DNA from: an uncultured Polyangiaceae bacterium
Lineage (GTDB): Bacteria > Myxococcota_A > Polyangia > Polyangiales > Polyangiaceae
DNA length: 64,000 nt
NCBI GenBank assembly: GCA_964628155.1
Contig: CAZVPE010000006.1
Span: forward strand, 291 to 64,290
Direction: 5' to 3'
Below the pieces are notes generated by a model. It had not been told where the DNA came from. It did not search any database and saw only the letters and a program-made list of their open reading frames with translations. Shown one piece after another: positions 6,305-25,622 of this stretch. Position 1 is the stretch's first letter; every line of letters begins with the position of its first letter. Position numbers and translations under genes: made by a program.

Positions 6305-6733
6305 ATGCACCGCTCCTCCGCAATGGCGTTCGCGGCGCTGGCCGGCTGTGGGGCGCCGGCTTCGGCGGCGCCGGCGGGTCCGTCGGAGTTCCCGGCTCAA
6401 CCGGTGATGACTCTGACGAGCGCCTCGGGACAGCTCCAGATCGAGGTTCGCACGGCGCCCCAGCAGCCGCCTTCGCGCGGCGACGGGAGCGTCGAGCTGG
6501 TCATCCGAAACACAACGACCAACGCGCCCGAGAGCGGGCTCTCGATCGACGTCGTACCCTGGATGCCGGCCATGGGTCACGGGGCGTCCATCGTTCCGGC
6601 CGTTGCGTCGCCGTCTCCGGGGACGTACGTCATCACGAACGTCGACCTCTTCATGCCCGGCACGTGGGAGCTGCGGACGACCGTGTCCGGGTCCGTCGCC
6701 GACCATGTCGCACCGTCCTTTCAGATTCCCTAG
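6305..6733 (+). CDS. YtkA/FixH-like small lipoprotein (possible metallochaperone)
   Basis: Tail of ORF 5837..6733. It has signal/lipobox MHRSSAMAFAALAGC, an Ig-like beta-rich body and Met/His patch PWMPAMGHG. It is divergent from regB. Confidence 0.5.
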   Translation: MHRSSAMAFAALAGCGAPASAAPAGPSEFPAQPVMTLTSASGQLQIEVRTAPQQPPSRGDGSVELVIRNTTTNAPESGLSIDVVPWMPAMGHGASIVPAVASPSPGTYVITNVDLFMPGTWELRTTVSGSVADHVAPSFQIP

Positions 6734-7652
6734 ACGATTCGTCGGCTCCGCCGCCGCCCTGGCGCTGCTCGCCGCGACGGCCCAGGCACACGCGCAAGCG
6801 TGCTGCGCGGCCACGGGAGCCGTGACCCCCGGCCGGCTCGCGCTCCACGAGGACGCTCTGGCGGGTCTGCAGGGGAAGGCGAGCTCGGTCCTCGGATCGT
6901 TCGACGCAACCGGGCGAACCCTCGCGTCGCCGCCGGGCGCGTCCGAGATCGATTTCGAGGAGGACCTCTTCGGCGCCGTGCGCTTTCTGCGGCGCGGTCA
7001 GGCCGCGCTCCTCGTGCCGCTCGTCGAGACGCATCGGGCGAGCCAGGGGCTCTCCGAATTCGGCGGCGGCATAGGCGACGTCAACGCGAGCGTGCGCTTC
7101 GATTTCTTTCTTGCGGGGGCCTCGCGGGTCGTACCCGGCGTCGCGATCCTCGCGGGTCTCACGTTCCCGACCGGAAAGCCGCCCGATGCGGCCGGCCTCG
7201 GACCGCTCGCCACCGGCGCGACCGGGATCGGCGCGTGGCAAGGGAACGTCGGTCTCGCGATCGAGCAGGTGTTCGGTCCGTGGCTGGTCAACGCGAGCGC
7301 CTTCGTCGCCCAGCGCCTAGCACGCACGGCGGGCACCGGGCCGGACGCGGTGCACGAACGGCTCGGCGCCCAGTGGACGATGATCGTGGCCGGGGCCTAC
7401 ACGTTTCCGAGCGGGATCGCGCTTGCGCTGAGCGCGTCGTACACGCTCGAAGAAGACGCCACGATCGACGGACACGATACGCCCGGAACGGCACACCGAC
7501 TGCCCGCGCTGTCGCTCTCCGGTGTTCTGCCGGTGGGCGACTCGTGGCGCGTGCAGGCGGCCCTCTTCGACGACCTTCCCATCTCCGGGCTCGGACTCAA
7601 CCAGCCGGCGAACGCGGGGATGCTCGTCACTGTGTTGCGATCCTGGATGTGA
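6705..7652 (+). CDS. Putative outer-membrane beta-barrel protein
   Basis: Signal peptide MSHRPFRFPRRFVGSAAALALLAATAQAHA, alternating amphipathic beta-strand pattern and aromatic C-terminal end (LRSWM). It overlaps the upstream gene by 29 nt. Confidence 0.5.
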   Translation: MSHRPFRFPRRFVGSAAALALLAATAQAHAQACCAATGAVTPGRLALHEDALAGLQGKASSVLGSFDATGRTLASPPGASEIDFEEDLFGAVRFLRRGQAALLVPLVETHRASQGLSEFGGGIGDVNASVRFDFFLAGASRVVPGVAILAGLTFPTGKPPDAAGLGPLATGATGIGAWQGNVGLAIEQVFGPWLVNASAFVAQRLARTAGTGPDAVHERLGAQWTMIVAGAYTFPSGIALALSASYTLEEDATIDGHDTPGTAHRLPALSLSGVLPVGDSWRVQAALFDDLPISGLGLNQPANAGMLVTVLRSWM

Positions 7653-7685
7653 CGGTCACGCTCGCGAGGCGGTCGTCGTTCGCCT

Positions 7686-10205
7686 TCACCAGTAGAGGGC
7701 CGCGTGCAGCATCCATGTTCTGGGCAAGCCAGGCGTGAAGCTGATGCCTTGCGGCGGGTTCGGGCCTTCACCCGGCAGCCGCGACTGAACGGCGAACTGC
7801 CCCTCCCGATAGGCGACATCGGCCAGGTTGAAGACGTCGGCGACGGCCTCGACGTTCTTCCAGCGTAGCCCCACTTCGGCGTCGAACACCGTGGAGCCCG
7901 TCTCCACGAGGCTGTAGTCGGGCAGGGCGGGCCGGTCGGAGATCGACCGCACGCGGAGCGAGCCGAGGATCCGGAATGGTCCCACGGGCTTGCGCACGCC
8001 GATGCCCGCCGAGAACGTCCGAATCGGAGCGTTCGGCAGGTAGACCGTGCCCGCGGCGATGTCGGCGGCGTCCGTGTACCGCGAATGAGAAACGGTCAGC
8101 GCGGCGTCGGCGAAGACGTCCTCGCGAAAGTGGTATCTCGCTGTGAACTCGCCTCCGTAACGGCGGGTCGGACCCGACGGAGACGTGGAGGCCGTGTCGC
8201 CGTCGTACGTCAGCTCCGAGGTGAGATCGAGCAAGAACCCGACGGCGGAAACCGACAGTCCCTCGACGGGCCGCAGAGCCGCCCCAACTTCGTATCCGGT
8301 CGCGGTCGCGATGAGCGTGGTCGCTGCCCCCGCGACGAGGGTGCGCCCGTCGTTGGAGTGGAATCCGCGTCCGTAGTTCGCGAAAAGGTCCAGCCAGGGT
8401 GCCGCGTAGACGATGGCCGCCGCCTTTGGGGACAGCTGAGCGGCGCCCCGCACTCCCGTAGCGCGGTCGACGGCAGTCTGGCTCTCGCTGGCGACGGCGA
8501 CGTCGATCCTGTCTTCGCGTGCCCCGATGACGAAACGCAGCCATTTGAGCGGACGGAAGTCCTCTTCGAACCACGCGGCGAGCTCCGTCTCGTTCACGGC
8601 GTCATCGACGATGGGACCCGGAATGTTCGCGTCGACGCCGTCGAGGCGCGTTCGAGCCTGCGTCCGGTGAAGCTGGGCCTCGATGGCGTCGTCGCGCAGC
8701 TGGAGACCGAAGGCCGACTGGACCGGAATTCCGGCGAGCGTGCCCCGATGGGTCAGTCGAACGGTGGCGCCGGCCTCGGTGCGGGTATCGTCCTGCTCGA
8801 TTTGCGATCCGTAGAGCGCCCCGTCGGGCTCGAAGGGCGCCGCGATTCCATCGTTGGGGAAGAGTTGCAAGTTGGAGCGCAGCGCGAACGCACTCGCGCG
8901 CAGCTCCCACGGCTCGTCGAACTGCCGCCGGTACGTCGTCGCGATCATCAAGCGCTGGCTCGCGCCGCCCTGCGTCGGATCGAACGAATCCCACCGGCTA
9001 ACGCAGTGCGACCCCGCGTACGCCGCGGGCACGGCCGTCCCGTCCCCCTCGCCGCAGACCGCGCGGGCGGGTAGGACGCCGGACGCGTTCCAGGACCCTC
9101 CGTATGCCATCACCAAGAGCGAGACGTCGCTCTGGTCGTCGAGAGCGCGCGTCGCTTTCGCGTAACCGTTGAAGCGCGAGAAGTCTTGGGGGTGGATGAA
9201 CGGCCCGTCCTCGTGGAAGACCTCGGCGGCGACGGCCAGGCGCCAGCCCGGCCCCAGATTGGGCGACTCGACCACCACCGCGCGGTCGTGACCGTACTGC
9301 CCGAGCTCGATGATCGCGACGCTCTCGGACAGGTGATCCGTCATGCGAAGCGTGACCGAGCCCGCGGTCGCGAAGTCGCCAATCCGAGCCGAGTACGGAC
9401 CCTTGGTGGAGTCGAGCGACTCGATCGTCTCGGGGATGAGGAAGTGGAGATCCGAGAATCCCTGGCCGTGCGCATGACTGACGGCGTTGATCGGGACGCC
9501 GTCCGCGAAGAAGGCGATGTCCGTTCCGTGGTCGGCGTCGAACCCTCGGAGAAAGTACTGCTGGGACTTGCCTCCGCCGCTGTGCTGGACCGTATAGAGA
9601 CCCGGCACGGCTTGCAGCACTCCCTCGGCGCGGTACCGGGGCATCCGCGAGAGCTCGGTCTGTGCGGTGCTCGAATCGGACGCGGCGATGCCAGGTGCCT
9701 CGTTCCGTTCGCCGAGGACGCGCACCTCTTGGAGCTCGGGGAGCAGCCGCGCCGGCGACGGTGCGTCGCGAGCGGGCGCTACCGCCGCGACGCTAGAGGA
9801 GCTGACCTCGGGAGTCGGCAGCGGGGGCGGCTGGAAGTCGTAGGAGAGCACGATCCTCGCGCGCACCGGCACGCCAGCCCTCTTGGCCGGTTCGAAGACG
9901 AACTGGCGGGCGGCCTCGAGCGCCGACTCGTCGAAACCGTGGCCCGCCGGTTTCGTGACTCGCGCGTCGGCGACGTGGCCTCCTTCGTCGACGACGATCT
10001 CGAGGCGCACCGTCGCCGAGAGTCGCTCGGGTAGCGCGGCGGCCGGATAGCGCGCATGAGCGTGGGCGCGCGCGACAGGTGGGGTCACGGGCGAGTCGGC
10101 CAAGGGTGCGCGTTCGTCGGCGGGCCCAGCCGCGTGCGCGGGAGTGGCCCCGAGCAAGGCCTCCAGCACCATGCACGCTTGGATGAACCGTCGCCGCGTC
10201 GGCAT
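7686..10205 (-). CDS. TonB-dependent receptor with an N-terminal TonB C-terminal-like domain
   Basis: 839 aa. The N-terminal segment YPAAALPERLSATVRLEIVVDEGGHVADARVTKPAGHGFDESALEAARQFVFEPA is TonB_C-like. It is followed by a plug (VQHSGGGKSQQYFLRGFDADHGTDI) and a long barrel ending in ALYW. Confidence 0.85.
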   Translation of the reverse strand: MPTRRRFIQACMVLEALLGATPAHAAGPADERAPLADSPVTPPVARAHAHARYPAAALPERLSATVRLEIVVDEGGHVADARVTKPAGHGFDESALEAARQFVFEPAKRAGVPVRARIVLSYDFQPPPLPTPEVSSSSVAAVAPARDAPSPARLLPELQEVRVLGERNEAPGIAASDSSTAQTELSRMPRYRAEGVLQAVPGLYTVQHSGGGKSQQYFLRGFDADHGTDIAFFADGVPINAVSHAHGQGFSDLHFLIPETIESLDSTKGPYSARIGDFATAGSVTLRMTDHLSESVAIIELGQYGHDRAVVVESPNLGPGWRLAVAAEVFHEDGPFIHPQDFSRFNGYAKATRALDDQSDVSLLVMAYGGSWNASGVLPARAVCGEGDGTAVPAAYAGSHCVSRWDSFDPTQGGASQRLMIATTYRRQFDEPWELRASAFALRSNLQLFPNDGIAAPFEPDGALYGSQIEQDDTRTEAGATVRLTHRGTLAGIPVQSAFGLQLRDDAIEAQLHRTQARTRLDGVDANIPGPIVDDAVNETELAAWFEEDFRPLKWLRFVIGAREDRIDVAVASESQTAVDRATGVRGAAQLSPKAAAIVYAAPWLDLFANYGRGFHSNDGRTLVAGAATTLIATATGYEVGAALRPVEGLSVSAVGFLLDLTSELTYDGDTASTSPSGPTRRYGGEFTARYHFREDVFADAALTVSHSRYTDAADIAAGTVYLPNAPIRTFSAGIGVRKPVGPFRILGSLRVRSISDRPALPDYSLVETGSTVFDAEVGLRWKNVEAVADVFNLADVAYREGQFAVQSRLPGEGPNPPQGISFTPGLPRTWMLHAALYW

Positions 10206-11602: not shown

Positions 11603-13090
11603 TCACGTGCCGCAGAACGTCTTGTACACGCGCTGCTCCGGCCCCGGCGGCTCGGCGAGGTAGGCCAGGTCGGCTCGATGGTCGTAGGGCCGCCCGAGCA
11701 CGTCGACCAACGTTTCGAAAGGCCTGAAATCGCCGTGGCTCACTGCGGCCTCGATGGCCTGTTCCACGCGGTGGTTGCGCGGGATGAAGGCGGGATTGGC
11801 GCGGCGCATGGCCGCGGCTCGCGCGGACGGTGGATCGGCCTCACGGGCGAGCCGGCGGCGCCAGGCTTCGGTCCACGACCGGAACGAGTCGGGCTCGGTG
11901 TCGAAGAGAGACGTGAGCTCGGAGTCCAACGACGGGTCCGCCGCAGCCCCGCATAGCCTGCGGAAGAAGAGGGTGTAGTCGACCCGATGCGCGGTGAGCT
12001 GCGCGAGGAGGCTCTCCAGGAGGGCGCGATCGTCCTCCTCCTCGCGCACGAGACCGAGCTTCGCACGCATCACGTCGAGGTGCGCGCTCTCGAAGCGCGA
12101 CGGGAAGCGCTCGAGGCGCTCGGTCGCCAGACGAACGGCCTGCTCGGCGTCCTCCGAAATCAGTCCGAGCAGCGTCTCGGCGAGACGCGCGAGGTTCCAG
12201 AGAGCGATGCGCGGCTGATTCGCGAACGCGTACCGGCCGCCGTGGTCGATCGAGCTGAACGTCTTGGCGGGGTCGTACTCGTCGAGGAAGGCGCAAGGAC
12301 CGTAGTCGATCGTCTCGCCCGAGACGGCCGTGTTGTCGGTGTTCATCACGCCGTGGACGAAGCCGACCCCGAGCCAGAGGGCGATCAAGTGCGCCTGGCC
12401 ATCGATGACCCGTTCGAGCAGCGCCAGCGCGTCGTTTCCCGTTCCGGCCGCTTCAGGGTAGTGGCGCACGAGGGCGTAGGAGGTCAGCGTTCGAAGCGCG
12501 TCCTGATCGTCGCGCCCGGCGAAGAACTCGAATGTTCCGACTCGGATGTGGCTCGCCGCGACGCGGGTTAGCACGGCTCCCGGAAGCGCCTCGTCGCGAA
12601 GGACGCGCTCGCCGGTCGTAACCGCGGCGAGCGCACGCGTGGTCGGAATCCCGAGCGCTGCCATCGCCTCGCTGACGACGTACTCGCGGAGCACGGGACC
12701 GAGCGCGGCCCGCCCGTCGCCTCCGCGCGAAAAGGGCGTGCGCCCGGCGCCCTTGAGCTGGATGTCCCGCCTTCGGCCATCCTTGCCGACGACCTCGCCG
12801 AGGAGAATCGCGCGCCCGTCGCCCAACTGCGGAACGAACGAGCCGAACTGGTGCCCGGCGTACGCCAGAGCGATCGGCTCCGCGCCGGCGGGTACCACGT
12901 TGCCCGCGAGGATCTGTGCTCCGGCGGGTGACGCAAGGAGTTCGATGTCGCCGCCAAGTAGCTCCGCCAGCGGCCGATTGAGCTTCACGAGGCGCGGGTC
13001 GCTCGCGCGCGCGGCGGCGACGCGCGCGTAGAAGCGCTCGGGAAGGCGCGCGTACGTGTTGTCGAATGCGAACATGGTCTCTCTTGGCAC
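11603..13090 (-). CDS. selO: Protein adenylyltransferase SelO (YdiU/UPF0061)
   Basis: FDNTYARLPERFY N-terminus, AYAGHQFG, LGDGRA and HGVMNTDNTAVSGETIDYGPCAF signature. 495 aa. Confidence 0.9.
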   Translation of the reverse strand: MPRETMFAFDNTYARLPERFYARVAAARASDPRLVKLNRPLAELLGGDIELLASPAGAQILAGNVVPAGAEPIALAYAGHQFGSFVPQLGDGRAILLGEVVGKDGRRRDIQLKGAGRTPFSRGGDGRAALGPVLREYVVSEAMAALGIPTTRALAAVTTGERVLRDEALPGAVLTRVAASHIRVGTFEFFAGRDDQDALRTLTSYALVRHYPEAAGTGNDALALLERVIDGQAHLIALWLGVGFVHGVMNTDNTAVSGETIDYGPCAFLDEYDPAKTFSSIDHGGRYAFANQPRIALWNLARLAETLLGLISEDAEQAVRLATERLERFPSRFESAHLDVMRAKLGLVREEEDDRALLESLLAQLTAHRVDYTLFFRRLCGAAADPSLDSELTSLFDTEPDSFRSWTEAWRRRLAREADPPSARAAAMRRANPAFIPRNHRVEQAIEAAVSHGDFRPFETLVDVLGRPYDHRADLAYLAEPPGPEQRVYKTFCGT

Positions 13091-13132: not shown

Positions 13133-14179
13133 TCAGCAGATTCGCGGGAGCTGCTCTCCGGAGAGAAGGTCGAGCCATCGCCGACCGCCCAGCCGACCGC
13201 GGAGCACCACGCTGCCGCGTCCCTCGACGACGCGACCGATCACGACGGCGTCTTTTGCTACGGCATGACCGCGCATCGCCCGGACCGCAGCCTCGACGTC
13301 CTCGGGCGGGACGAACGCGACGAAGCGGCCTTCGTTGGCCACGTACAAGGGGTCGAGCCCGAGGAGCTCGCACGCGCCCTCGACCGCGCTCGTGACGGCA
13401 ATGGCCGTCTCGTCGACTTCGACGCAAAAGCCGGAGTCCATCGCGATCTCGTTCAGCGCGGTCGCCAGACCTCCGCGCGTGAGATCGCGCAGACAGTGCA
13501 CGTCGACCCCGGCCTCCAGAACGCCCTGGACGACCGCCGCGAGCGGCGCACAGTCGCTCTCAATCGACGTCTCGAACGCGAGCGACTCGCGCACGGAGAG
13601 CACCGCGATGCCGTGGCGGCCGACATCCCCGCTGAGAACGACGAGGTCGCCCGCTCGCACGCGCGCCGGGGCTATCGGGCGAGCGGCTGCGACAAGACCC
13701 ACGCCCGAGGTGTTCACGAAGCAACGATCGGCCTTTCCGCGACCGACGACTTTCGTGTCGCCGGTAACGAGCTCCACCCCCGCTTGCGTCGCGGCCTCGC
13801 GCATCGACGCGACGATTCGCCTCAGGTCGTCGAGCGGCAGCCCCTCCTCAAGAACGAATCCGGCACTCAAGAACGCGGGGCGGGCTCCCACCATCGCCAG
13901 GTCGTTCACGGTTCCGAAGACGGCCAACTTCCCGATGTCGCCGCCGGGGAAAAAAAGTGGGTCGACGACGTAGCTGTCCGTCGTGAACGCGAGCCGCGCG
14001 CCTCCGAGGTCGAAAACCGCTGCGTCGAGCCGCGCGGCGAGGGCCGGGTTGTCGAATGCCGGGAGAAAGACCTGTTCGAGCAAGCCGCGCGTCAGCCGCC
14101 CGCCACCGCCGTGCGCGAGCTGAATCGTCGCGCGCGGGCCGATCGGAGATGGGCACGTCAGGATGAAGTCGTCGGCCAT
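13133..14179 (-). CDS. hypE: Hydrogenase maturation carbamoyl dehydratase HypE
   Basis: Tail of ORF 13133..15010 from [13 protein letters not shown]-synthase-like fold motifs and the invariant C-terminal PRIC. Confidence 0.9.
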
Positions 14180-15267
14180 GGTCCCATCCTCCGATAGCGG
14201 TAGTATGCGGCGCACGCACCTTCCGACGACACCATGGTCGCTCCCAGCGGAGTCTCGGGCGTACAGCGCGAGCCGAACGCCGGACACTCCGGCGGCTTCT
14301 TGAGTCCCTGGAGGATCAACCCGCTGACGCACTCGGTCGCCTCCTCGGCGACGACGTCCGCGACATCGAACTTGCGCTCGGCGTCGAACTCGGCGAACTC
14401 CTCGCGAAACGCGAGCCCGCTCTCGTCGATCCGGCCGATGCCTCGCCAGGGGCGGGCGACCACGCGGAAGACTTCGCGGACCATCCGGACGGCGAGCTCG
14501 TTGCCGCGGTCGCGTACCGAGCGCGCGTATTGATTCTCGACTCGTGCGCGCCCCAGCTCGAGCTGCGTCACGCACATGTGGATCCCCTGGAGGATGTCGA
14601 TCGGCTCGAACCCCGTCACGACGATCGGCACTCGGTATTTCTCGGCGATCGGGGCGTACTCGCCGGTGCCCATGATCGTGCAAACGTGGCCCGCGGCCAG
14701 AAAGCCGTTCACGCGGCAGGACGGCGACGCGAGGATAGTCTCCATCGCCGGGGGAACGAGGACATGCGAAACGAGGAGCGAGAAGTTCGAGCGCCCTTCC
14801 CTCCGGGCCTGAAATGCCGCCATGGCGGTTGCGGGCGCGGTCGTCTCGAAGCCCACGGCGAAGAAGACCACCTGACGCTCCGGGTTGGCCCGCGCGAGCG
14901 TGAGCGCATCCATCGGCGAGTACACGACGCGTACGTCGCCCCCGGCGGCTTTGACCCCCGCGAGGTCGTCTCTCGATCCCGGAACGCGGAGCATGTCGCC
15001 AAACGAACAAAAAATCACCTCGCGACGCGAGGCGACGGCGATCGCCCGATCGAGGAGCTCGACCGGCGTCACGCAGACCGGACAGCCGGGCCCGTGAACG
15101 AGCGTGACGCCGGGGGGCAAGAGCTCGTCGAGTCCGAATCGAACGATCGAATGGGTCTGCCCGCCGCAGACCTCCATGATGACCCAGGGGCGCGTGGCGA
15201 TCGCCCGGATCGCCACGGCGTAACGCCGCGCTCCGTCCGCGTCCCGGTACTCGTCGATGTGCTTCAG
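14158..15267 (-). CDS. hypD: Hydrogenase maturation factor HypD
   Basis: KHIDEYRD N-terminus, [14 protein letters not shown] and FETTAP motifs. Only a CTG (15265-15267) is available at the conserved N-terminus, overlapping the hypC stop. It overlaps hypE by 22 nt. Confidence 0.85.
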
Positions 15268-15515
15268 GGCGTCCCCCCGTCCGCGAGCTCGGCGAGGACC
15301 TCCATCTCGCGCAGGTACGAGAAGACGCGGGCCGCCTCCGCCTCGTCCAATCGGCTGATGGCGAAGCCGACGTGGACGATGACGTAGTCGCCCGCGTGCG
15401 CCTCGGGGACGTACGCGAGACAGACCTCTTTGACGATTCCTCCGAACTCCACGCTGGCCATCCGCAGATCGCCTTCGGTCACGTTGAGGACGCGGCCCGG
15501 GACTCCTAGGCACAT
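15264..15515 (-). CDS. hypC: Hydrogenase assembly chaperone HypC/HupF
   Basis: Begins MCLGVPGRV (invariant N-terminal Cys2). 83 aa. Confidence 0.9.
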
Positions 15516-15917: not shown

Positions 15918-16373
15918 CTAGGCGTGCGCGAGGACGGCGCGAGCGGCAGCGGGGATCGCGGCCCGGACAGCCGGGGTCAGGCCGTGAACGAATCGGCGCG
16001 GAGGTGCAATGCGCACGCCGACGACCCAGATAGCGGGCGACAGCGCATCTGCCGAGAGGATCCGCGCAAGCGCAACCGCTTGGCCGATGTCCACGCCGTG
16101 CGTCGAGACGGGCCGCGGCCCGCGCGTCGGCGCGTCGAGCGCCTCCACTCCGAACGCAAGCACCTCGCCGATCACGCCTTGACCAACCATCGCGTCGACC
16201 AGCACGACGGGCCGAGGCGTCTCCAGTAGCGCAATCAGCGCTGTGGCCTCCCTCGCCACGAGGAGCTCGGTGCCCGAGGGCGCTCCGGTTTCGCGGATCC
16301 ACTGGAGGATGGCGAGCCCGACGCCGTCGTCTCCCGCGGCGGACTGCCCTAGCCCGATGACGCGCGTGCCCAC
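15918..16373 (-). CDS. Hydrogenase maturation endopeptidase (HyaD/HoxW family)
   Basis: VIGLGQSAAGDDGVG motif (GxGNxxxxDDGxG-like), 151 aa, immediately after the large subunit. Confidence 0.8.
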   Translation of the reverse strand: MGTRVIGLGQSAAGDDGVGLAILQWIRETGAPSGTELLVAREATALIALLETPRPVVLVDAMVGQGVIGEVLAFGVEALDAPTRGPRPVSTHGVDIGQAVALARILSADALSPAIWVVGVRIAPPRRFVHGLTPAVRAAIPAAARAVLAHA

Positions 16374-16376
16374 CGC

Positions 16377-17672
16377 CTACTCCCTCTCGATCCTCAGATC
16401 GATGAAATGCGTAGAGCAGGAGATGCACGGATCGTAGTTGCGCACCGCTTGCTCGGCTCTCCACGTCGCGTCCGCGAGGGGTAGCTCGGCGAGCGAAGGC
16501 GCCATCCGAAAGAGGTCTTCCTCGATCGTCTTCTGGTTCTGCGAGGTGGGCGGCACGATCCGCGCGTCGAGGATCGTCCCGCGCTCGTCGACGGCGTAGC
16601 GGTGGTAGAGGATCCCCCTCGGCGCCTCGGTACAGCCGTATCCGGTGCCCGCACGCTCCGGGGTCTCGACGAAGGGCCTCTCGGGGGGATCGTAGGCGTC
16701 GATGATCCGGCGCGCCTCGTCGAAGGCGTGAAGGACCTCGAGCAAACGCACGAGGATGCTCTTGAATGGGTTCCTGCAAGGAGCGACCAGCCCGATCGAT
16801 CGGGCCGCTTCGCTCGCCGCGTCCGAGAGGCGATCGAAGTTCAGATTGAACCGCGCGAGCGGCCCGCAAAAGTAGGCCCCTCGCTCGCGCATTCGAGCAT
16901 GGAGTGCCGTGGAGTACGGCACCTGCTCCTCGACGACGTGCGCGTCGAAATCGCGGGCTTCGATGTCGAGACCCGCGCTCGACGTGATTCGGCCGTCCAG
17001 CATCGGATATTCGCTCGGGTGCCGCAGTGCTACGAACTCGTAGTCCCGCTCGAAGTCCGGGAATGCCAGCGTCGAGGCCCAGCTGAGCGATTCGCGAACC
17101 GATTCGAGAGCCCAGTCGATCTCGGGTAGGAGCGCGCGGAGATCGGCCGCGGACGGTGTCTTGTAAAAGCCTCCGACGCGAACGTTGATGGGATGGATCT
17201 CGCGGCCGCCGACCCGCGCGACGATGGCGTTTCCGGCCTTCTTGATGCGCAGGCCCCGCTTGACGATCTCCGGATGATCCTTCGCCATCGCCAGCGCGTC
17301 GGGATAGCCGAGGAAATCGGGCGCGTGGAGCATGAAGACGTGAAGGGCGTGGCTCTCGATCCACTCGCCGCAATAGAGGAGGCGCCGCAGGCTCCGTATC
17401 GGACCTTCGACTCGGACCCCCAACGCATCTTCGACCGCCTGACAACTCGACATCTGATAGGCGACCGGGCAGATGCCGCAAATCCGCGCGGTGATGTCCG
17501 GCACCTCGGCGTAGGAGCGGCCGCGCAAGAACGCTTCGAAAAAACGTGGCGGCTCGAAGATGCGGAGCTCGACGGCGGTCGCCCGGCTGCCCTGGAGGCG
17601 GATCGTCAGAGACCCCTCCCCTTCGACGCGGGCGAGCGCCTCGACTTTGATCGTGCGTACGGTCTCGGTCAT
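16377..17672 (-). CDS. hyhL: [NiFe]-hydrogenase large (alpha) subunit, group 3b-like
   Basis: 431 aa. N-terminal ligands [10 protein letters not shown] and C-terminal DPCISCSTH, followed by a short cleavable tail FIDLRIERE. Confidence 0.85.
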
Positions 17673-18463
17673 CGCGCTTTCTCGCTCTCTTCGAGCCGGA
17701 TGGACTCGTTGCGAAAGGGCTCCGCGTTTGCATAGAAGGTGCGGAGCGCGCGCACGAGCGTTGCCTTTTTCGCGCCGGCGGCGAGAAATGTCCGGCCGAG
17801 CGAGGCCGCGTTCGGCGTTTCCATCGGGCCGTAACACCCGTAGCAACCGCGGTCGTAGCTCGGGCAAAGCGCTCCGCATCCCGCGTGGGTGATTGGGCCC
17901 AGGCAAGGCGTCCCGTGCGCGACGAGGACGCAAACGTTCCCTCTGCGTTTGCATTCGACGCACACGCTGTGCGCGGAGATTGCCGGCTTTCGCCCGTTCA
18001 AGAATGCGCCGATGACCTCGAGGAGCTGCGACTTTTCGACGGGGCAGCCCTGTAGCTCGAAGTCGACGCGCACGTGACGGGCGATGGCCGTCGATGTTGC
18101 CAGAGCGGCGACGTACTCCGGCGAAGCGTAGACGACGCTTCGGAATTCGTTCACGTCCGAGAAGTTGCGCAGCGCCTGGATGCCGCCGGAGGTCGCGCAC
18201 GCACCAATCGTCACGAGTGCCTTCGAAACGCGGCGCACCTCTTGGATTCGGCGCTCGTCGTCCGGCGTGGTGATCGACCCCTCGACGAGCGAGAGGTCGT
18301 ACGGGCCGGCGACGTCCGCCTTCGTTGCCTCTCTGAATTGGGCGATTTCCACGGCTCCCGCCAAGGCGAGAAGATCGTCCTCGCAGTCGAGGAGCGTCAG
18401 CTGGCACCCGTCGCATGACGCGAACTTCCAGACCGCCAACTTGGGTCGCTTTCGAGGGCGCAT
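17669..18463 (-). CDS. hyhS: [NiFe]-hydrogenase small (delta) subunit, group 3b-like
   Basis: 264 aa with no signal peptide. Motifs FASCDGCQ and GACATSGG plus distal Cys clusters ([25 protein letters not shown]). 4-nt overlap with hyhL. Confidence 0.85.
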
Positions 18464-18464
18464 A

Positions 18465-19307
18465 TCAGAGCTCCCGCCGATCGAGGAGGCTCGAAATCCG
18501 ATCGAACCGGAGCACCGGCCCGTCTCGGCACAAGAACGACTCGCGATACTGGCAGTGACCGCAGAACCGCAACGCACATTTCATGTTCCGCTCCATGGAG
18601 ACGAACATTCGGTCGCCCGGGAGGCCCCGGTTCGCGAGCGCGCGCGCGGTGAAGCGCATCATCACTTCCGGTCCGCAGATCATCGCGACCGTCGCGGCGG
18701 TGTCGATCGACACCTTGTCGAGAAGTGCCGGCACGACGCCGACGGGCCCGACCCAGTCTGCCTCCGCATGGTCCACGGTGACGTGGACACGCCCGTCGAG
18801 CTTCTTCTCCCAGCGCGCGACCTCCTTTCGATAGACGAGGTCCGCAGGGCTACGGGCCCCGTAGAGGAGCGTGACGTTGCGGAAGCGCCCCCGCTGGCGA
18901 ACGAGCTCGTAGACAACCGGCCTGAGCGGAGCGATCCCGAGTCCGCCCGCGATCACGATCACGTCTTTGCCGAAGGCCTGGTCGACCGGCCACCCGGCTC
19001 CGTACGGGCCGCGAACGCCGACCGTATCGCCGCGCTTGAGGCGCTGCATCGGTGTCGTAACGCTGCCGACTGCGCGAATCGTGTGGACCAGCGCGTGCGT
19101 CTGATTCGGGTCGCCGCTGATCGAGATCGGGACCTCGCCCACCCCGAAGAGGTAAAGCATGTTGAACTGACCGGGAGCGAACGAGAATCCACCGTTCGCG
19201 ACGTCGAGCCAGAGCGTGAAGGTGTCGGCGGTTTCTTGGGTGCGGCGCAGCACTCGGACCGGTTGCGGAAGCCACGGGTCAGCGCCGGCCGCGAATGGTT
19301 CGCTCAT
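18465..19307 (-). CDS. hyhG: Hydrogenase gamma subunit: FNR-like FAD/NAD(P)-binding protein with C-terminal 2Fe-2S
   Basis: 280 aa. Flavin-reductase pattern ([18 protein letters not shown]) and C-terminal [17 protein letters not shown]. Confidence 0.8.
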
Positions 19308-19762
19308 GGCGCTTGATAGACGTCGAGGCGCTGCAGGCGAACGTGGTCCAGCCGCTGGACCGTTTTCTCGTAAAGTCGCAGCACGAGTTCGTAGCCGAGG
19401 TCGTGGTCCTTCGAGATCTTGCCCCGCAGGCACGCGCCGTCGAACGCGAGCGCGACCACGGGCTCGACCGCGCGGGCGTCGAGGTTCACCCGGTACGGCG
19501 GGACGAGCCACGAGAGTCCCAGGACGTCGCCGGGGCCGACGCTTTCCATTTGGAGCGTTCCTCTGCCCGGCACGTGGACCTCGAGGGCGACGCGCCCGAC
19601 GCGAAGGAGGAAGAAGGTATTGGCATCGCCCCCTTCCCTCATCAGAAACTCGCCGGCTTCGAAGCGCAGATTTTTCGCGCACGCGACAATGAGCGCGACA
19701 TGCGCCTCGGAAAAGCCTTTGAGAAATTCGTGCTCGTGGAGGAGCCGCTCGAGGTTCTCCAT
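19304..19762 (-). CDS. Stand-alone cyclic-nucleotide-binding (CAP-effector-like) domain protein
   Basis: 152 aa: [49 protein letters not shown]...[11 protein letters not shown]...[12 protein letters not shown]. No HTH or other domain. It starts 3 nt after the hyhB stop, and its stop overlaps the hyhG ATG (ATGA). Confidence 0.75.
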
Positions 19763-19764
19763 GG

Positions 19765-20913
19765 TCAGCCTGGGTCGGAAGCCCGAATTGCGGCGACCTC
19801 TTGGGTGATGTCGATCGCCACGGGGCACCAGGTGATGCATCGGCCGCACCCGACGCATCCCGACGTTCCGAACTGGTCGATCCAGCTCGCGAGCTTGTGC
19901 GTGAGCCACTGCCGGTAGCGCGACTTGATCGACGCGTGCACGCTTCCGCCGTGCAAATAGCTGTGATCCATCGTGAAGCAGGAGTCCCAGCGCTGCACCC
20001 GCTCGGCCTGCTCTCCCGCCAGGTCGGTGACGTCGTCGACGGAAGAGCAAAAACACGTGGGACAGGCGAGCGTGCAATTCGTGCACGCCAGACACCGGCT
20101 CGCGACGTCGTCCCAGCGAGGGTGCTCCGCGTTTCGGTAGAGGAGCTCCTTGATCCCGTCCGTATTCATGGTCCGTCCCATTTGGGCTGCCGTTCGCGCC
20201 ACGATGGCTTCGGCCGCTTCGAGGTCGGCGCGAGGTGCCTCTTCGTAGCCCACGCGCTCCAAGACTTGCGCCCCTGATTCGCTCCCGATCCCGACGACGA
20301 AGCGGTGGCCCTTGTCGTCGAGGAGCTCGGTGAGCGCCAGGTCGAAGCCGAGCGTAGCCCGCGGCCCCGTTCCAAGGGAGGTGCAGAAACACGTCCCGCC
20401 GGCCTGACCGCAATGGACGGCCACGACGAACGTGCCGCTGCGTCGGGCAAGGTACTCCTGGTCGACCGATGGTCCCTCGAGAAACACTTTGTCTTGGATC
20501 GCGATGGCGTGGAGATCGCACGAACGCGCGCCGATGAGGGCGAGCAAGGGCGCACTTCGCGTCTTCTCGAGGACGACGAAAGAACCGTCGCGCCGCCTGG
20601 CGCGCCAAAGCTGGAGGGTCGGGACGAAAAAGAACGGCTTCCAAGACTGCGGGCCGACCGAGTACCCGAAGAGCGCCCGGTCATCGCGGCGGCGGAGGCG
20701 ATAGGTGCCGGCGTCTTGGGACTCCGTCCATCCCTCGGGCAGGTCCTCGATTCCGGAGATCGATTCGTGGACGATCGCGCCGTCTCGCACGGTGGGTCCG
20801 ACGAGCTGGAAGCCGTCCTGGCGCAGGACCTGGAGGAGCCGCGCAAAGCGGTCTCGCGAGAGAAGCGCGCGCTCTCCAAGACGGGTCGACTTCGTCATGG
20901 GCGCATCGGTCAT
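19765..20913 (-). CDS. hyhB: Hydrogenase beta subunit (AsrA-like 4Fe-4S protein)
   Basis: 382 aa with Cys clusters [16 protein letters not shown] and [12 protein letters not shown]. Size and order match the sulfhydrogenase-type beta subunit. Confidence 0.8.
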
Positions 20914-22799: not shown

Positions 22800-25622
22800 T
22801 CAGTGGGCGGTCTCTTTTTTCGACGCAGCGCCGAGGGCCGTTTGCGGCCGCACCCAGACTTCGACACGGCGATTTCGGTCTCGTCCGCCGGGCGATTCGT
22901 TGTCGGCCACCGGCCTCTCGTCGCCGAGCCCCTCGACGAGCGATGCGTGCAGTCCGTAGGCCTCGAGCCGGTGAGCGACCCTATCGGCGCGCTCGTGCGA
23001 GACGTGGCTCTTGACGTCGCTCGTGCCCTGGTTGTCCGAAAACCCGAGCAGAATGAACTCTGGCGTGCGCTGCATACGGAGGACTGCGGCCAATCGTCCG
23101 ATGTCTTGCGCGGCGCGGCTGTCGAGATCGCTCTGGCCGCTCCGAAAGCGGAACGTCAGTGACAGTCGCTTGGCGCCGCGCGTAAGCCCGGCGTAGTCCG
23201 CGGGGCAATCCGCGCACGAGTCCGAGTCGTCGGCCAGTGCGGACAGGTTTACAAAGCCCGCCGCCGCGACCAACGTCTGCCCCTCGGGCGACAGCGCAAA
23301 CTGAACGAAAGGCCCCGCCAGAGGATGGGTCGAGGGCGACGGCGCGTACAGATAGAGGCGTCGCGTCAACGGGTAATCTTCGCTTCCGACACTGAATCGG
23401 GTCGGGAAGAGCGCTCCCGCGCCGCTGGATACGGCTACCGCACTCGCGCGGCCGACCAACGACATTCCGACAAAACCGATTGCCTGCGGATTGGCCGCCA
23501 CGGCGGACGAAAGCTCCCCGCTGTCGGTGAAGCGCTTGGCCTTGGCGGCCAGGGGATGCTCCCCCAAAACGAGGGCTTTGAACGTGTCGTAGGTTCCCGA
23601 TCGGTCGTCGCGCGCGTACACCTCGATAGGGCTCGACGCGCCATCCACGGCGGCCGGCCAGTTGGTGGTCTCGCCGTCGAAGATGCGCGCGATGTCGTCG
23701 ATCGCCAGCGTGCGCAGCGGGTTGCTCTCGTTCACGACGACGGCGACTCCGTCCAGACCGATTACGTTCTCGTTCGAAGGGGCGCTCAGATCGCCGAGCC
23801 CGGCTTGCTTCAGCCGCTCGGCCTCTTCGGGCCGGATCATGCGCGAGGCCATGCCGAGATCGCAGCGACCCGCGCCGAGGTCGTCGAACGCCGTTCCAGA
23901 GCCCGCGGCGTCGATGTCGATCTCCACGGGCTGCGCGGACCCGGGCACCGTGCCCGAGACGACCCACGCGTGTCCGTCTGCATTCTTCGTGCGGGCCACG
24001 TCTTTGGCGCCCATGTGCTGAAGCAAGCCCGCGGCAAGCGACGGCGCGAGCTCGGCGCCGAACGTGTTGGACCCGTGCAACCGCAACGGCTTGACGGAGA
24101 CGGGCAAGACGGCGGCCGTTTCCCCGGCTTGCTCGAAGCGAACGGTGGGCGTCGTCGCCGCAGCATGCGCGTCGGGAATGAGCGCGCGAAAGAGAAGAAA
24201 GAGGCCCCCAGCCAGGAGCGTGGCCGCCGGCAGCGTCAACACCCAGGCGAGCGCGATGTTGCGAACGGTCGAGCCCTGGAGGCCCGACTTCTGTGCGATC
24301 ATGGTTCCCGCGATACCCGAAGACAGTACGTGCGTCGTGCTGACGGGCATTCCGAACGACCCGGAGAGGCCGATCGTCGTCATCGCCACGATCTCGGCCG
24401 AAGCACCCTGCGCGTACGTCAGGTGCGTTTTGCCGATCTTCTCCCCCACGGTCACGACGATGCGCTTCCAGCCGATCATCGTGCCGATGCCGAGCGAAAA
24501 AGCGATGAGACCGATGACCCAACCGGGCGCGTAGTCGATCGAAGCACGCAGGGTCTTTCGGTCCTTCTGGATGGCGGCCAGCCTCTCGGGGGAGAGCGCC
24601 GCTGCGCCCGTACCCTTCTCGAGCGTCGCCAGCTCGTTGTCCACGCGCATGATCCGCGATCGGACGTCGAAGCGTGCATCGGGCGGGATGTCTCGAATGG
24701 ATTCCTTTCCGTTGAGCGCCGCCCGGATCTCGCCGAGATCCGTAAGGACCGCTCCGGCGGGAGTCTTCGGTACGGCCATGTCGACCGTCGACGCGAGTCG
24801 CCCGGTCTCTCCGCCGAACGCGTCGCGGGTGTTGGTCTCCAGCCTCTCGGCGACCTGCACTGCGTCGTGGATCTGCGCCTTTGCGAGCGATGTGTTCAGC
24901 GCGTAGTCCGCGGGCAGCAGCCCGATGAGAATCAGCATGATGAGGCCGACGCCCTTCTGTCCGTCGTTCGATCCGTGGGCGAAGCTCACGCCGCTACACG
25001 TGCCGATGAGGATCGCCCGGATCCAACCCGGCGGCGTTTTGTCCGGATCGGCGGGCTGATGCAGCGCGGGAGACTTGAGGAGGTAATTTCTGGCCAAGAG
25101 CAGCAAGAGCGCGGCGGCCCCGAGTCCAAAAACGGGAGAAATGAGGAGCGAGAGGCCGATTTCACGGACCTTGTGCCAGTTGACCCCGCTCCCGAAGACG
25201 TGATTCGGCATGAGCGAATTGGCCAGGCCGACCCCCACGATCGCGCCGATGAGCGTGTGTGAGCTCGAAGCCGGCAGGCCGAGCCACCACGTGCCGAGAT
25301 TCCACATGATGGCCGCGACGAGCAGCGCGAGCACCATCGCAAGCCCGGCTCCGCTTCCGCTCGCAGCCAGGAGTTCGACCGGCAAGAGCTTGATGATGCT
25401 CATCGCCACCGCGATACCTCCGAGATACACGCCGAGGAGGTTGAGGACACCAGAAATGAGGACGGCCTTCCAGGGGCGGAGCGAGCGCGTGTAGATCACG
25501 GTGGCCACCGCGTTCGCCGTGTCGTGGAAGCCGTTGACGAACTCGAAGCCGCACGCGATGAGCAGCGCGACAATCAAGAGAACGAATTGGCCGGTCCCGA
25601 TGTTGGTGTCGAAGAGGTGCAT
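22800..25622 (-). CDS. Triple fusion: PiT-family phosphate permease + PstS-like periplasmic phosphate-binding domain + OmpA-like domain
   Basis: 940 aa. Residues 1-482 are PiT (GFHDTANAVAT, HGSNDGQKG, VSTTHVLSSGI). Residues ~511-793 are PBP-like (RLHGSNTFG..., GLDGVAVVVN, RDDRSGTYDTF, YPLTRRLYLY). Residues ~818-926 are OmpA-like (LLGFSDNQG...RADRVAHRL...NRRVEVWV). Confidence 0.85.
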   Translation of the reverse strand: MHLFDTNIGTGQFVLLIVALLIACGFEFVNGFHDTANAVATVIYTRSLRPWKAVLISGVLNLLGVYLGGIAVAMSIIKLLPVELLAASGSGAGLAMVLALLVAAIMWNLGTWWLGLPASSSHTLIGAIVGVGLANSLMPNHVFGSGVNWHKVREIGLSLLISPVFGLGAAALLLLLARNYLLKSPALHQPADPDKTPPGWIRAILIGTCSGVSFAHGSNDGQKGVGLIMLILIGLLPADYALNTSLAKAQIHDAVQVAERLETNTRDAFGGETGRLASTVDMAVPKTPAGAVLTDLGEIRAALNGKESIRDIPPDARFDVRSRIMRVDNELATLEKGTGAAALSPERLAAIQKDRKTLRASIDYAPGWVIGLIAFSLGIGTMIGWKRIVVTVGEKIGKTHLTYAQGASAEIVAMTTIGLSGSFGMPVSTTHVLSSGIAGTMIAQKSGLQGSTVRNIALAWVLTLPAATLLAGGLFLLFRALIPDAHAAATTPTVRFEQAGETAAVLPVSVKPLRLHGSNTFGAELAPSLAAGLLQHMGAKDVARTKNADGHAWVVSGTVPGSAQPVEIDIDAAGSGTAFDDLGAGRCDLGMASRMIRPEEAERLKQAGLGDLSAPSNENVIGLDGVAVVVNESNPLRTLAIDDIARIFDGETTNWPAAVDGASSPIEVYARDDRSGTYDTFKALVLGEHPLAAKAKRFTDSGELSSAVAANPQAIGFVGMSLVGRASAVAVSSGAGALFPTRFSVGSEDYPLTRRLYLYAPSPSTHPLAGPFVQFALSPEGQTLVAAAGFVNLSALADDSDSCADCPADYAGLTRGAKRLSLTFRFRSGQSDLDSRAAQDIGRLAAVLRMQRTPEFILLGFSDNQGTSDVKSHVSHERADRVAHRLEAYGLHASLVEGLGDERPVADNESPGGRDRNRRVEVWVRPQTALGAASKKETAH

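Follow-up and report, generated by a model that had tools for sequence, protein, structure and literature searches.

In the soluble NAD-reducing hydrogenase of C. necator (Ralstonia eutropha), an enzyme of group 3d, the diaphorase module carries HoxI, a homodimer of cyclic-nucleotide-binding (CNB) domains that is the site at which NADPH activates the oxidised enzyme (PMC3702609; PMC3189943). The characterised group 3b enzymes, P. furiosus SHI (PDB 9nez/9nf0), the T. kodakarensis enzyme (5yxy) and M. smegmatis Hyd3, are built from four homologous subunits, alpha, beta, gamma and delta, with the gene order B-G-S/D-L/A, and no CNB gene lies between their beta and gamma genes. Here we analyse a 64,000-nt stretch of DNA from an uncultured Polyangiaceae bacterium (contig CAZVPE010000006.1, positions 291-64,290; hereafter the window), which has the same order of structural genes and in which a gene for a stand-alone CNB protein of 152 aa lies between hyhB and hyhG, the genes for the beta and gamma subunits of a group-3b-type [NiFe]-hydrogenase. 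Unlike the characterised enzymes, the window belongs to a large bacterial clade with this fifth gene. We find that the gene is real, that its product has the fold of a CRP sensor domain with a degenerate ligand cassette, and that homologous genes occupy the same slot in nearly all comparable loci; the product is a putative accessory regulatory subunit of the hydrogenase.

The original prediction, made from the window DNA, held that nothing alike was known for such enzymes. This was overstated, as HoxI is a precedent in group 3d and the gene has already been recorded in 3b clusters: it is listed in that of R. equi (PMC13332983) and is called 'HoxI' in that of a methanotroph (PMC12319191). With a known analogue and a gene noticed before, the novelty is smaller than first claimed, and our literature search on sulfhydrogenase and group 3b enzymes found no study of a 3b CNB protein.

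A CRP-like sensor fold without a DNA-binding domain

The 152-aa open reading frame (ORF) matches the Pfam family PF00027 (cNMP_binding) over residues 33-117 with 38.5 bits (cut-off 27.5) and E=1.1e-9. The Pfam scan of the ORF gives no HTH_Crp_2 and no domain besides PF00027. GC content by codon position is 0.75/0.37/0.82, and the ratio of nonsynonymous to synonymous substitution rates (dN/dS) against the 85%-identical orthologue in a related locus (L001) is 0.10. A word-indexed search with the protein returns 3075 homologues, and nearly all of the 120 listed are 151-156 aa long, with a few of up to 173 aa; an exhaustive search gives 1527 clusters (50% identity) at E<=1e-10. The identical protein is present on 13 public contigs, and one cluster member is annotated as coming from a Polyangiaceae metagenome-assembled genome (MAG). 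Because of the codon-position GC, the low dN/dS and the thousands of homologues of equal length, the ORF is a true gene and not a spurious reading frame of a high-GC genome.

AlphaFold2 (AF2) models the protein from a 130-sequence alignment with a predicted local distance difference test (pLDDT) score of 91.7 and a predicted template-modelling (pTM) score of 0.85. The model consists of N-terminal helices, the CNB β-barrel, a short helix at residues 83-85 and a single long C-terminal helix (residues 120-149). Since the protein ends at residue 152, right after this helix, there is no room for a helix-turn-helix (HTH). The significant PF00027 match and the AF2 fold agree with the original prediction of a stand-alone CNB ORF between hyhB and hyhG with no HTH or other output domain.

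A Foldseek search with the model gives 643 PDB matches with E<=1e-3; each of the 50 best, which were listed, is a CNB-fold protein. The best match is 3MDP (template-modelling (TM) scores 0.80/0.91, root-mean-square deviation 1.4 Å), followed by the sensor domains of C. glutamicum GlxR and M. tuberculosis CRP, with query-normalised TM scores of 0.75-0.79. With these CRP/FNR sensors, as with E. coli CAP, the protein shares the CNB barrel and the long C-helix that forms their dimer interface; it differs from them in the absence of the winged HTH and in that the Glu and Arg that contact cAMP are not conserved. Judged from the model, the CNB protein is essentially CRP minus its DNA-binding domain. 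PF00027 above threshold and a barrel with the phosphate-binding cassette (PBC) helix and flanking helices in the AF2 model place it in the CNB superfamily, and the missing C-terminal winged HTH places it outside the CRP/FNR transcription factors. 3MDP is Gmet_1532 of Geobacter metallireducens, a structural-genomics 'putative cyclic nucleotide-binding protein'. It is also the best PDB match by sequence (E=1.5e-8), stands alone, is of similar size and has a PBC of the form 'G-x-S-x-L-x-P-Y...ARA', but is only ~26% identical to the window protein.

A degenerate phosphate-binding cassette

In the canonical cassette of receptors for cyclic nucleoside monophosphates (cNMPs), the Glu of G-E-x-A-L contacts the ribose 2'-OH, and the Arg and Ser/Thr of R-[ST]-A contact the cyclic phosphate. 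We placed the window protein in register with this cassette by profile and HMMER alignments to PKG and CRP and by a hidden Markov model (HMM) of the 130-member family. Leu83 stands at the canonical Glu position, where family members have Trp or Leu; Val92 stands at that of the Arg (Trp in most members, or Val) and Asn93 at that of the Thr/Ser (Asn, His or Gln in the family). A conserved arginine, Arg91, sits one residue upstream of the canonical Arg position. The original prediction had read the cassette as keeping its Arg and replacing the next Ser/Thr by Val; a conserved Arg is indeed present, and it is the register that has to be corrected, with Val92 taking the place of the canonical Arg and Asn93 that of the Ser/Thr. 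In place of the canonical GE...R[ST]A, the family has the signature G82-x-S84-W85-L86-x-P88-P89-Y90-R91-x-x-x-D95-A96-R97-A98. Further conserved positions are H11, C28, G56, D108, R113, R137, R142, D147 and Y149.

The protein does not have the cassette residues of functional cAMP/cGMP receptors. Because both hallmark cNMP contacts, the Glu and the Arg, are absent, cAMP or cGMP is unlikely to be its ligand, and the doubt that the original prediction had voiced on this point now stands on stronger grounds. A genuine cAMP/cGMP receptor that couples the hydrogenase to second-messenger signalling would still pass the Pfam cNMP_binding threshold, as the protein does, and would suit the public annotations, which read 'CRP-like cAMP-binding protein'; Arg91 is a direct neighbour of the canonical Arg position, in a loop that could shift. 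We consider such a receptor very improbable in view of the replacement of Glu by Leu/Trp, of Arg by Val/Trp and of Ser/Thr by Asn/His/Gln, and the window genes that were scanned include neither a cyclase nor a phosphodiesterase gene.

Among the stand-alone members of the family, His11 is conserved in 83%, Cys28 in 84% and Cys111 in 71%, and Cys111 is absent from the fusions to HyhG described below. From this pattern a redox or metal role of His11, Cys28 and Cys111 is possible. A [4Fe-4S] or redox-cysteine role as such was considered and set aside, the conservation of Cys28 and Cys111 and the absence of the latter from the fusions making too weak a case.

A conserved gene in the slot between hyhB and hyhG

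One genome of each species was scanned with a HyhL profile; of at least 598 matching stretches, the best 80 loci were used. Their HyhL is 58-69% identical to that of the window, and they come from more than 15 phyla, in a sample biased towards relatives of the query. Slot occupancy was scored by tblastn with the window proteins; 6 of the 80 contigs are too short to judge, which leaves 74 assessable loci. The same gene is found in the same slot in 70 of these 74, which answers the question, raised by the original prediction, of how regularly a CNB gene lies between the beta and gamma genes. In 68 loci the genes B-CNB-G-S-L lie within 6 kb of hyhL. In a Candidatus Brocadia MAG (L018) the order B-CNB-G-S is followed by a gap of ~3.3 kb (6674-10001) between hyhS and hyhL, and at L012 the contig is cut within the CNB gene. 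Loci with the gene span Myxococcota, Acidobacteriota, Planctomycetota, Chloroflexota, Bacteroidota, Ignavibacteriota and Zixibacteria, and also occur in Calditrichota, Binatia, Deinococcota, Pseudomonadota, Bipolaricaulota, Sumerlaeota, Desulfobacterota and two archaeal MAGs.

Four loci with enough sequence do not have the gene (L040, L071, L077 and L032); in two of them, L040 and L071, both from Chloroflexota, hyhB is directly followed by hyhG. The nearest HyhL relatives of all four carry the CNB gene, which indicates that the absence is a secondary loss. On this comparison of loci, the CNB gene is a conserved fifth gene of most bacterial group 3b operons and not a local insertion. Mean pairwise identity over 59 complete loci is 52.8% for the CNB protein, 55.5% for HyhB, 58.1% for HyhG, 70.4% for HyhS and 65.9% for HyhL. 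Correlation of its distances with those of the subunits gives r 0.37-0.56 for the CNB protein, in the range found for the subunits among themselves (0.42-0.67). The CNB protein evolves like a structural subunit, about as slowly as HyhB and HyhG.

In the window, the operon is encoded on the minus strand by the following genes:

19765-20913, minus strand: hyhB, FeS (beta) subunit, 382 aa; Fer4_22 (E=2e-30), NCBIfam ShyB/HydB and AsrA-like, PDB 9nez_B (SHI beta, E=1e-36)
19304-19762, minus strand: CNB-domain gene, putative fifth or accessory subunit, 152 aa; PF00027, AF2, Foldseek, dN/dS and conserved slot
18465-19307, minus strand: hyhG, FAD/NAD(P)-binding [2Fe-2S] (gamma) subunit, 280 aa; NAD_binding_1 and DHODB_Fe-S_bind, NCBIfam gamma HydG/ShyC, PDB 9nez_C (E=2e-46)
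17669-18463, minus strand: hyhS, small (delta) subunit, 264 aa; Oxidored_q6, NCBIfam HydD/ShyD
16377-17672, minus strand: hyhL, [NiFe] large (alpha) subunit, 431 aa; NiFeSe_Hases, NCBIfam ShyA (265 bits), best PDB matches 5yxy and 9nez_D
15918-16373, minus strand: hydrogenase maturation endopeptidase, 151 aa; HycI / TIGR00072
15571-15915, minus strand: hypA, from the ORF translation
15264-15515, minus strand: hypC, from the ORF translation
14158 to about 15267, minus strand: hypD, from the ORF translation
13133-14179, minus strand: hypE, from the ORF translation

The four subunits of the window are homologous to alpha, beta, gamma and delta of SHI, in the order B-G-S-L, and their best NCBIfam matches are ShyA/B/C/D and HydA/B/G/D, with scores below the equivalog cut-offs. 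HyhL has the motifs RICGIC and DPCISCSTH, and in the PDB search it ranks the group 3b structures 5yxy and 9nez above those of groups 3c (5odc) and 3d (5xf9). With group 3b defined as in PMC5037454, the host operon is, by its best matches to 3b structures, a group-3b-type (NADP-coupled, sulfhydrogenase-type) [NiFe]-hydrogenase operon. The orthologous locus L001 has HypA, HupF_HypC, HypD and AIRS/AIRS_C in the order of the hyp genes of the window.

The stop codon of hyhB (TGA, 19767-19765) is followed by 2 nt, 'CC', and then by the ATG of the CNB gene at 19762, and the stop of the CNB gene (TGA, 19306-19304) overlaps the ATG of hyhG (19307-19305) as ATGA. The other junctions of the operon are equally tight, with 1 nt between hyhG and hyhS, an ATGA overlap between hyhS and hyhL, 3 nt between hyhL and the protease gene and 2 nt between the protease gene and hypA. 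Across the loci that carry the CNB gene, junctions are mostly overlaps or gaps of <35 nt, which is ordinary operon packing (start codons were called heuristically). The original prediction had taken translational coupling as a sign of a subunit rather than a regulator. We rejected this argument: it does not discriminate, because the maturation protease, which is no subunit, has equally tight junctions, as has hypA. The idea of a subunit itself holds up on other grounds, the slot occupied in 70 of 74 loci and the fusions described below.

Two neighbours of the operon recur in related loci. A gene for a SelO protein adenylyltransferase (window 11603-13090, minus strand) lies directly downstream of hypE, and SelO is next to hypE in the related loci L001 and L002 as well, so that its linkage to the hydrogenase cluster is kept at least in close relatives. 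On the other side, at 22800-25622 (minus strand), the window encodes a single 940-aa polypeptide in which a PHO4 phosphate-transporter domain is joined to PBP_like_2, a PstS-like domain that binds phosphate in the periplasm, and to OmpA at the C-terminus; L001, too, has a protein of this architecture (937 aa) upstream of its hydrogenase cluster.

Natural fusions to HyhG and HyhB

In several lineages the CNB module is covalently joined to one of its neighbours. A CNB-HyhG fusion of 468 aa (P0369) is present in identical form on three contigs from three samples, each time in the order HyhB - fusion - HyhS. A search with it recovers a lineage of fusions of 463-470 aa with 74-100% identity, annotated as Acidimicrobiales and present on tens of contigs of up to 2.46 Mb. 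More divergent CNB-HyhG fusions are P0411 and P0415, and in a 613-aa protein from Dormibacteria (P0401) two CNB domains are joined to HyhG. The other neighbour is fused in a HyhB-CNB protein of 542 aa with a linker of ~16 aa, for which there are two distinct sequences on two contigs; a further candidate HyhB-CNB fusion, P0273, turned out to be a frameshift artefact and was discarded. In yet another form, seen on a single contig (P0365, 465 aa, L090:2741-4138), USP domains precede the CNB domain in the slot between hyhB and hyhG and add a second nucleotide-type sensor domain. Because fusion to both neighbours has occurred repeatedly, the CNB module is probably in physical contact with HyhB/HyhG, and we regard the recurrent fusions as strong comparative evidence for this contact. 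Judging by the tandem CNB forms and by the C-helix, which is like that of CRP, the module probably works as a dimer.

In an Anaeromyxobacter MAG (L005:7941-9229), the CNB frame runs on 232 codons, with the CNB match ending at residue 132 and the HyhG match beginning at residue 35. Either a frameshift in the assembly or a further fusion could give this pattern.

The fusions also bear on whether the CNB protein could be an assembly or maturation factor for HyhB/HyhG, acting in FeS or flavin insertion or in holding the apo-subunits, and released from the mature enzyme. The maturation genes that encode no subunit (protease, hypA) are packed just as tightly in the operon, and the Pyrococcus and M. 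smegmatis enzymes function without a CNB protein, both of which would suit such a factor. A released chaperone is, however, hard to square with those lineages in which the protein is permanently fused to HyhG or HyhB, and the CNB protein is much better conserved than the protease (37-59% versus about 25-50% identity to the window proteins). We know of no maturation role for any CNB fold, and find this explanation improbable.

Comparison with HoxI

Like HoxI, the 3b CNB protein is a small single-CNB protein (152 aa, compared to 167 aa for HoxI) without an output domain, and the genes of both belong to operons of cytosolic [NiFe]-hydrogenases linked to NAD(P). In other respects the two differ. 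HoxI of C. necator (pHG1) is 25% identical to the window protein, and the HMM of the 3b CNB family gives it 49.9 bits, compared to 45.6 for PKG, 39.1 for E. coli CRP, 86 for 3MDP and 155-196 for true members. HoxI keeps the canonical Glu of the cassette and has His at the Arg position, whereas the 3b family has Leu/Trp and Val/Trp at these positions. The hoxI gene follows hoxW at the end of hoxFUYHW, whereas the 3b gene lies between hyhB and hyhG, and the partner of HoxI, HoxFU, is Complex-I-like, whereas HyhBG is AsrAB-like. The 25% identity and the 49.9-bit score rule out that the 3b CNB protein is an orthologue of HoxI, and by sequence the name given to the methanotroph gene is not borne out. 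It represents, as judged by these scores, a CNB subfamily other than that of HoxI, probably recruited independently, and by analogy it plausibly works like HoxI.

Discussion

Our analysis establishes a CNB fold with no output domain, a degenerate site for cNMPs, a conserved slot in the operon, purifying selection and fusions to HyhG and HyhB. Our preferred explanation of them, to which we give a probability of roughly 0.55, is that the CNB protein is an accessory regulatory subunit on HyhB/HyhG, probably dimeric, that binds a ligand other than a cNMP and tunes activation or electron flow. In such an arrangement the CRP-like sensor module, consisting of the CNB β-barrel and the long C-helix and devoid of a DNA-binding domain, would most likely dimerise through its C-helix and would most likely be attached to the HyhB/HyhG electron-input (diaphorase-like) module. 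It would probably bind a small molecule other than cAMP or cGMP, with a pyridine or adenine nucleotide as the first candidate by analogy with HoxI, and binding would tune how the enzyme is activated or how electrons pass between the [NiFe] site and NAD(P)H. Beyond the established features, we infer a stable association with the complex in this organism, a dimer, a ligand and a gating effect; the last is the 'allosteric gate on electron flow' of the original prediction.

Several observations weigh against an accessory subunit. The first group comes from the characterised enzymes. No chain of 9nez, the four-subunit SHI of P. furiosus, matches the CNB protein. In M. smegmatis Hyd3, the beta (MSMEG_3931) and gamma (3930) genes and the genes 3929, 3928 and 3927 have consecutive numbers (PMC2799521), with no CNB gene among them. 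As SHI and Hyd3 work without it, the CNB protein is not essential for catalysis. Subunit status is here a proposal from comparative genomics.

The second group concerns docking. AF2 models the domains of the fusion P0369 with pLDDT >90 and the linker of roughly 30 aa (residues 153-181) as disordered, from an alignment that is mostly unpaired; the pTM of 0.63 is about the value for two independent domains, and there is no confident docking of CNB onto HyhG. The third group consists of relatives apart from the hydrogenase operons. Orphan CNB proteins with the signature GWSWLxPP[YF] are encoded outside hydrogenase operons (P0341, and P0345 at L091:1956-2429). A sigma-54 enhancer-binding protein with AAA+ and Fis-type HTH domains (P0388, L089:466-1890, on a single 2-kb contig) has an N-terminal sensor of the same CNB subfamily, which is 47% identical to the window protein and keeps the family signature. 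As the orphan genes and this sensor domain show, the subfamily is not confined to hydrogenases, so that the residues conserved in it need not form a docking surface for HyhB/G.

The subfamily also includes proteins made only of tandem CNB domains in five, three or two copies (P0250, 840 aa; P0318, 532 aa; P0241; P0243). Of the two orphans, one adjoins a gene for a PEGA-domain protein, and the other is near genes for an rsmH-like methyltransferase, an acetyl-CoA-synthetase/acetyltransferase fusion and a USP protein.

The absence of a confident CNB-HyhG interface and the members outside hydrogenase operons would also be expected of a soluble sensor that is co-expressed with the hydrogenase and acts in trans, by transient partner switching or by control of another protein, without being a stable subunit. 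Even HoxI dissociates easily, at high ionic strength (PMC3189943). Such a sensor is harder to reconcile with the recurrence of covalent fusions to HyhG and HyhB in several lineages and with a slot between two structural genes that is fixed in 70 of 74 loci, and the CNB protein has no output domain of its own; we consider it unlikely.

The members outside hydrogenases bear in the opposite direction on a ligand-free structural subunit, in which a CNB dimer with an empty pocket would scaffold or dimerise HyhBGSL protomers or stabilise HyhB/HyhG. The lost cNMP contacts are in keeping with an empty pocket, a role in dimerisation would suit both the C-helix, which is CRP-like, and the tandem CNB-CNB-HyhG fusion, and the charged C-helix residues R137, R142 and D147 are nearly invariant. 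Yet conservation is strongest in the pocket-forming PBC region (G82-S84-W85-P88-P89-Y90-R91-D95-A96-R97), and the signature is kept in the orphans and in the sigma-54 activator sensor, where a HyhBG scaffold would be senseless. The USP-CNB version, moreover, brings in a second sensor domain of nucleotide type. A scaffold of this kind seems to us an unlikely explanation as well. Taken by their sequences, the members outside hydrogenases favour a ligand-sensing module that can be plugged into varied outputs over a surface evolved only for docking to HyhBG.

A more far-reaching version of the accessory-subunit idea, which we offer tentatively and regard as doubtful in its full extent, is that most bacterial 3b hydrogenases are five-subunit enzymes, in which a CRP-like CNB dimer, recruited independently of HoxI, senses a metabolite other than a cyclic nucleotide (e.g. 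an adenine nucleotide or NADPH/NADP) and acts as an allosteric switch of NAD(P)H-dependent H2 evolution or uptake. If this is true, the four-subunit models, Pyrococcus SHI and M. smegmatis Hyd3, would be unrepresentative, and CNB sensor modules would have converged twice on NAD(P)-linked hydrogenases. The 3b protein would then be a second, independent case, beside HoxI, of a CNB fold that serves as an enzyme subunit with a ligand other than a cNMP.

In genomes from soil and sediment, group 3b hydrogenases rank among the most widespread. Genome surveys use them to infer fermentative H2 production and redox balancing, and this use rests on two four-subunit model enzymes. About 95% of the judged bacterial loci in our sample carry the additional sensor-type gene, which in some lineages is fused to HyhG or HyhB. 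Hosts that can be cultivated include Sorangium cellulosum So ce56 (locus L063), Rhodococcus equi, Vitiosangium and Dictyobacter. The conservation of this gene and its fusions suggest that the activity of 3b enzymes is under direct metabolite control.

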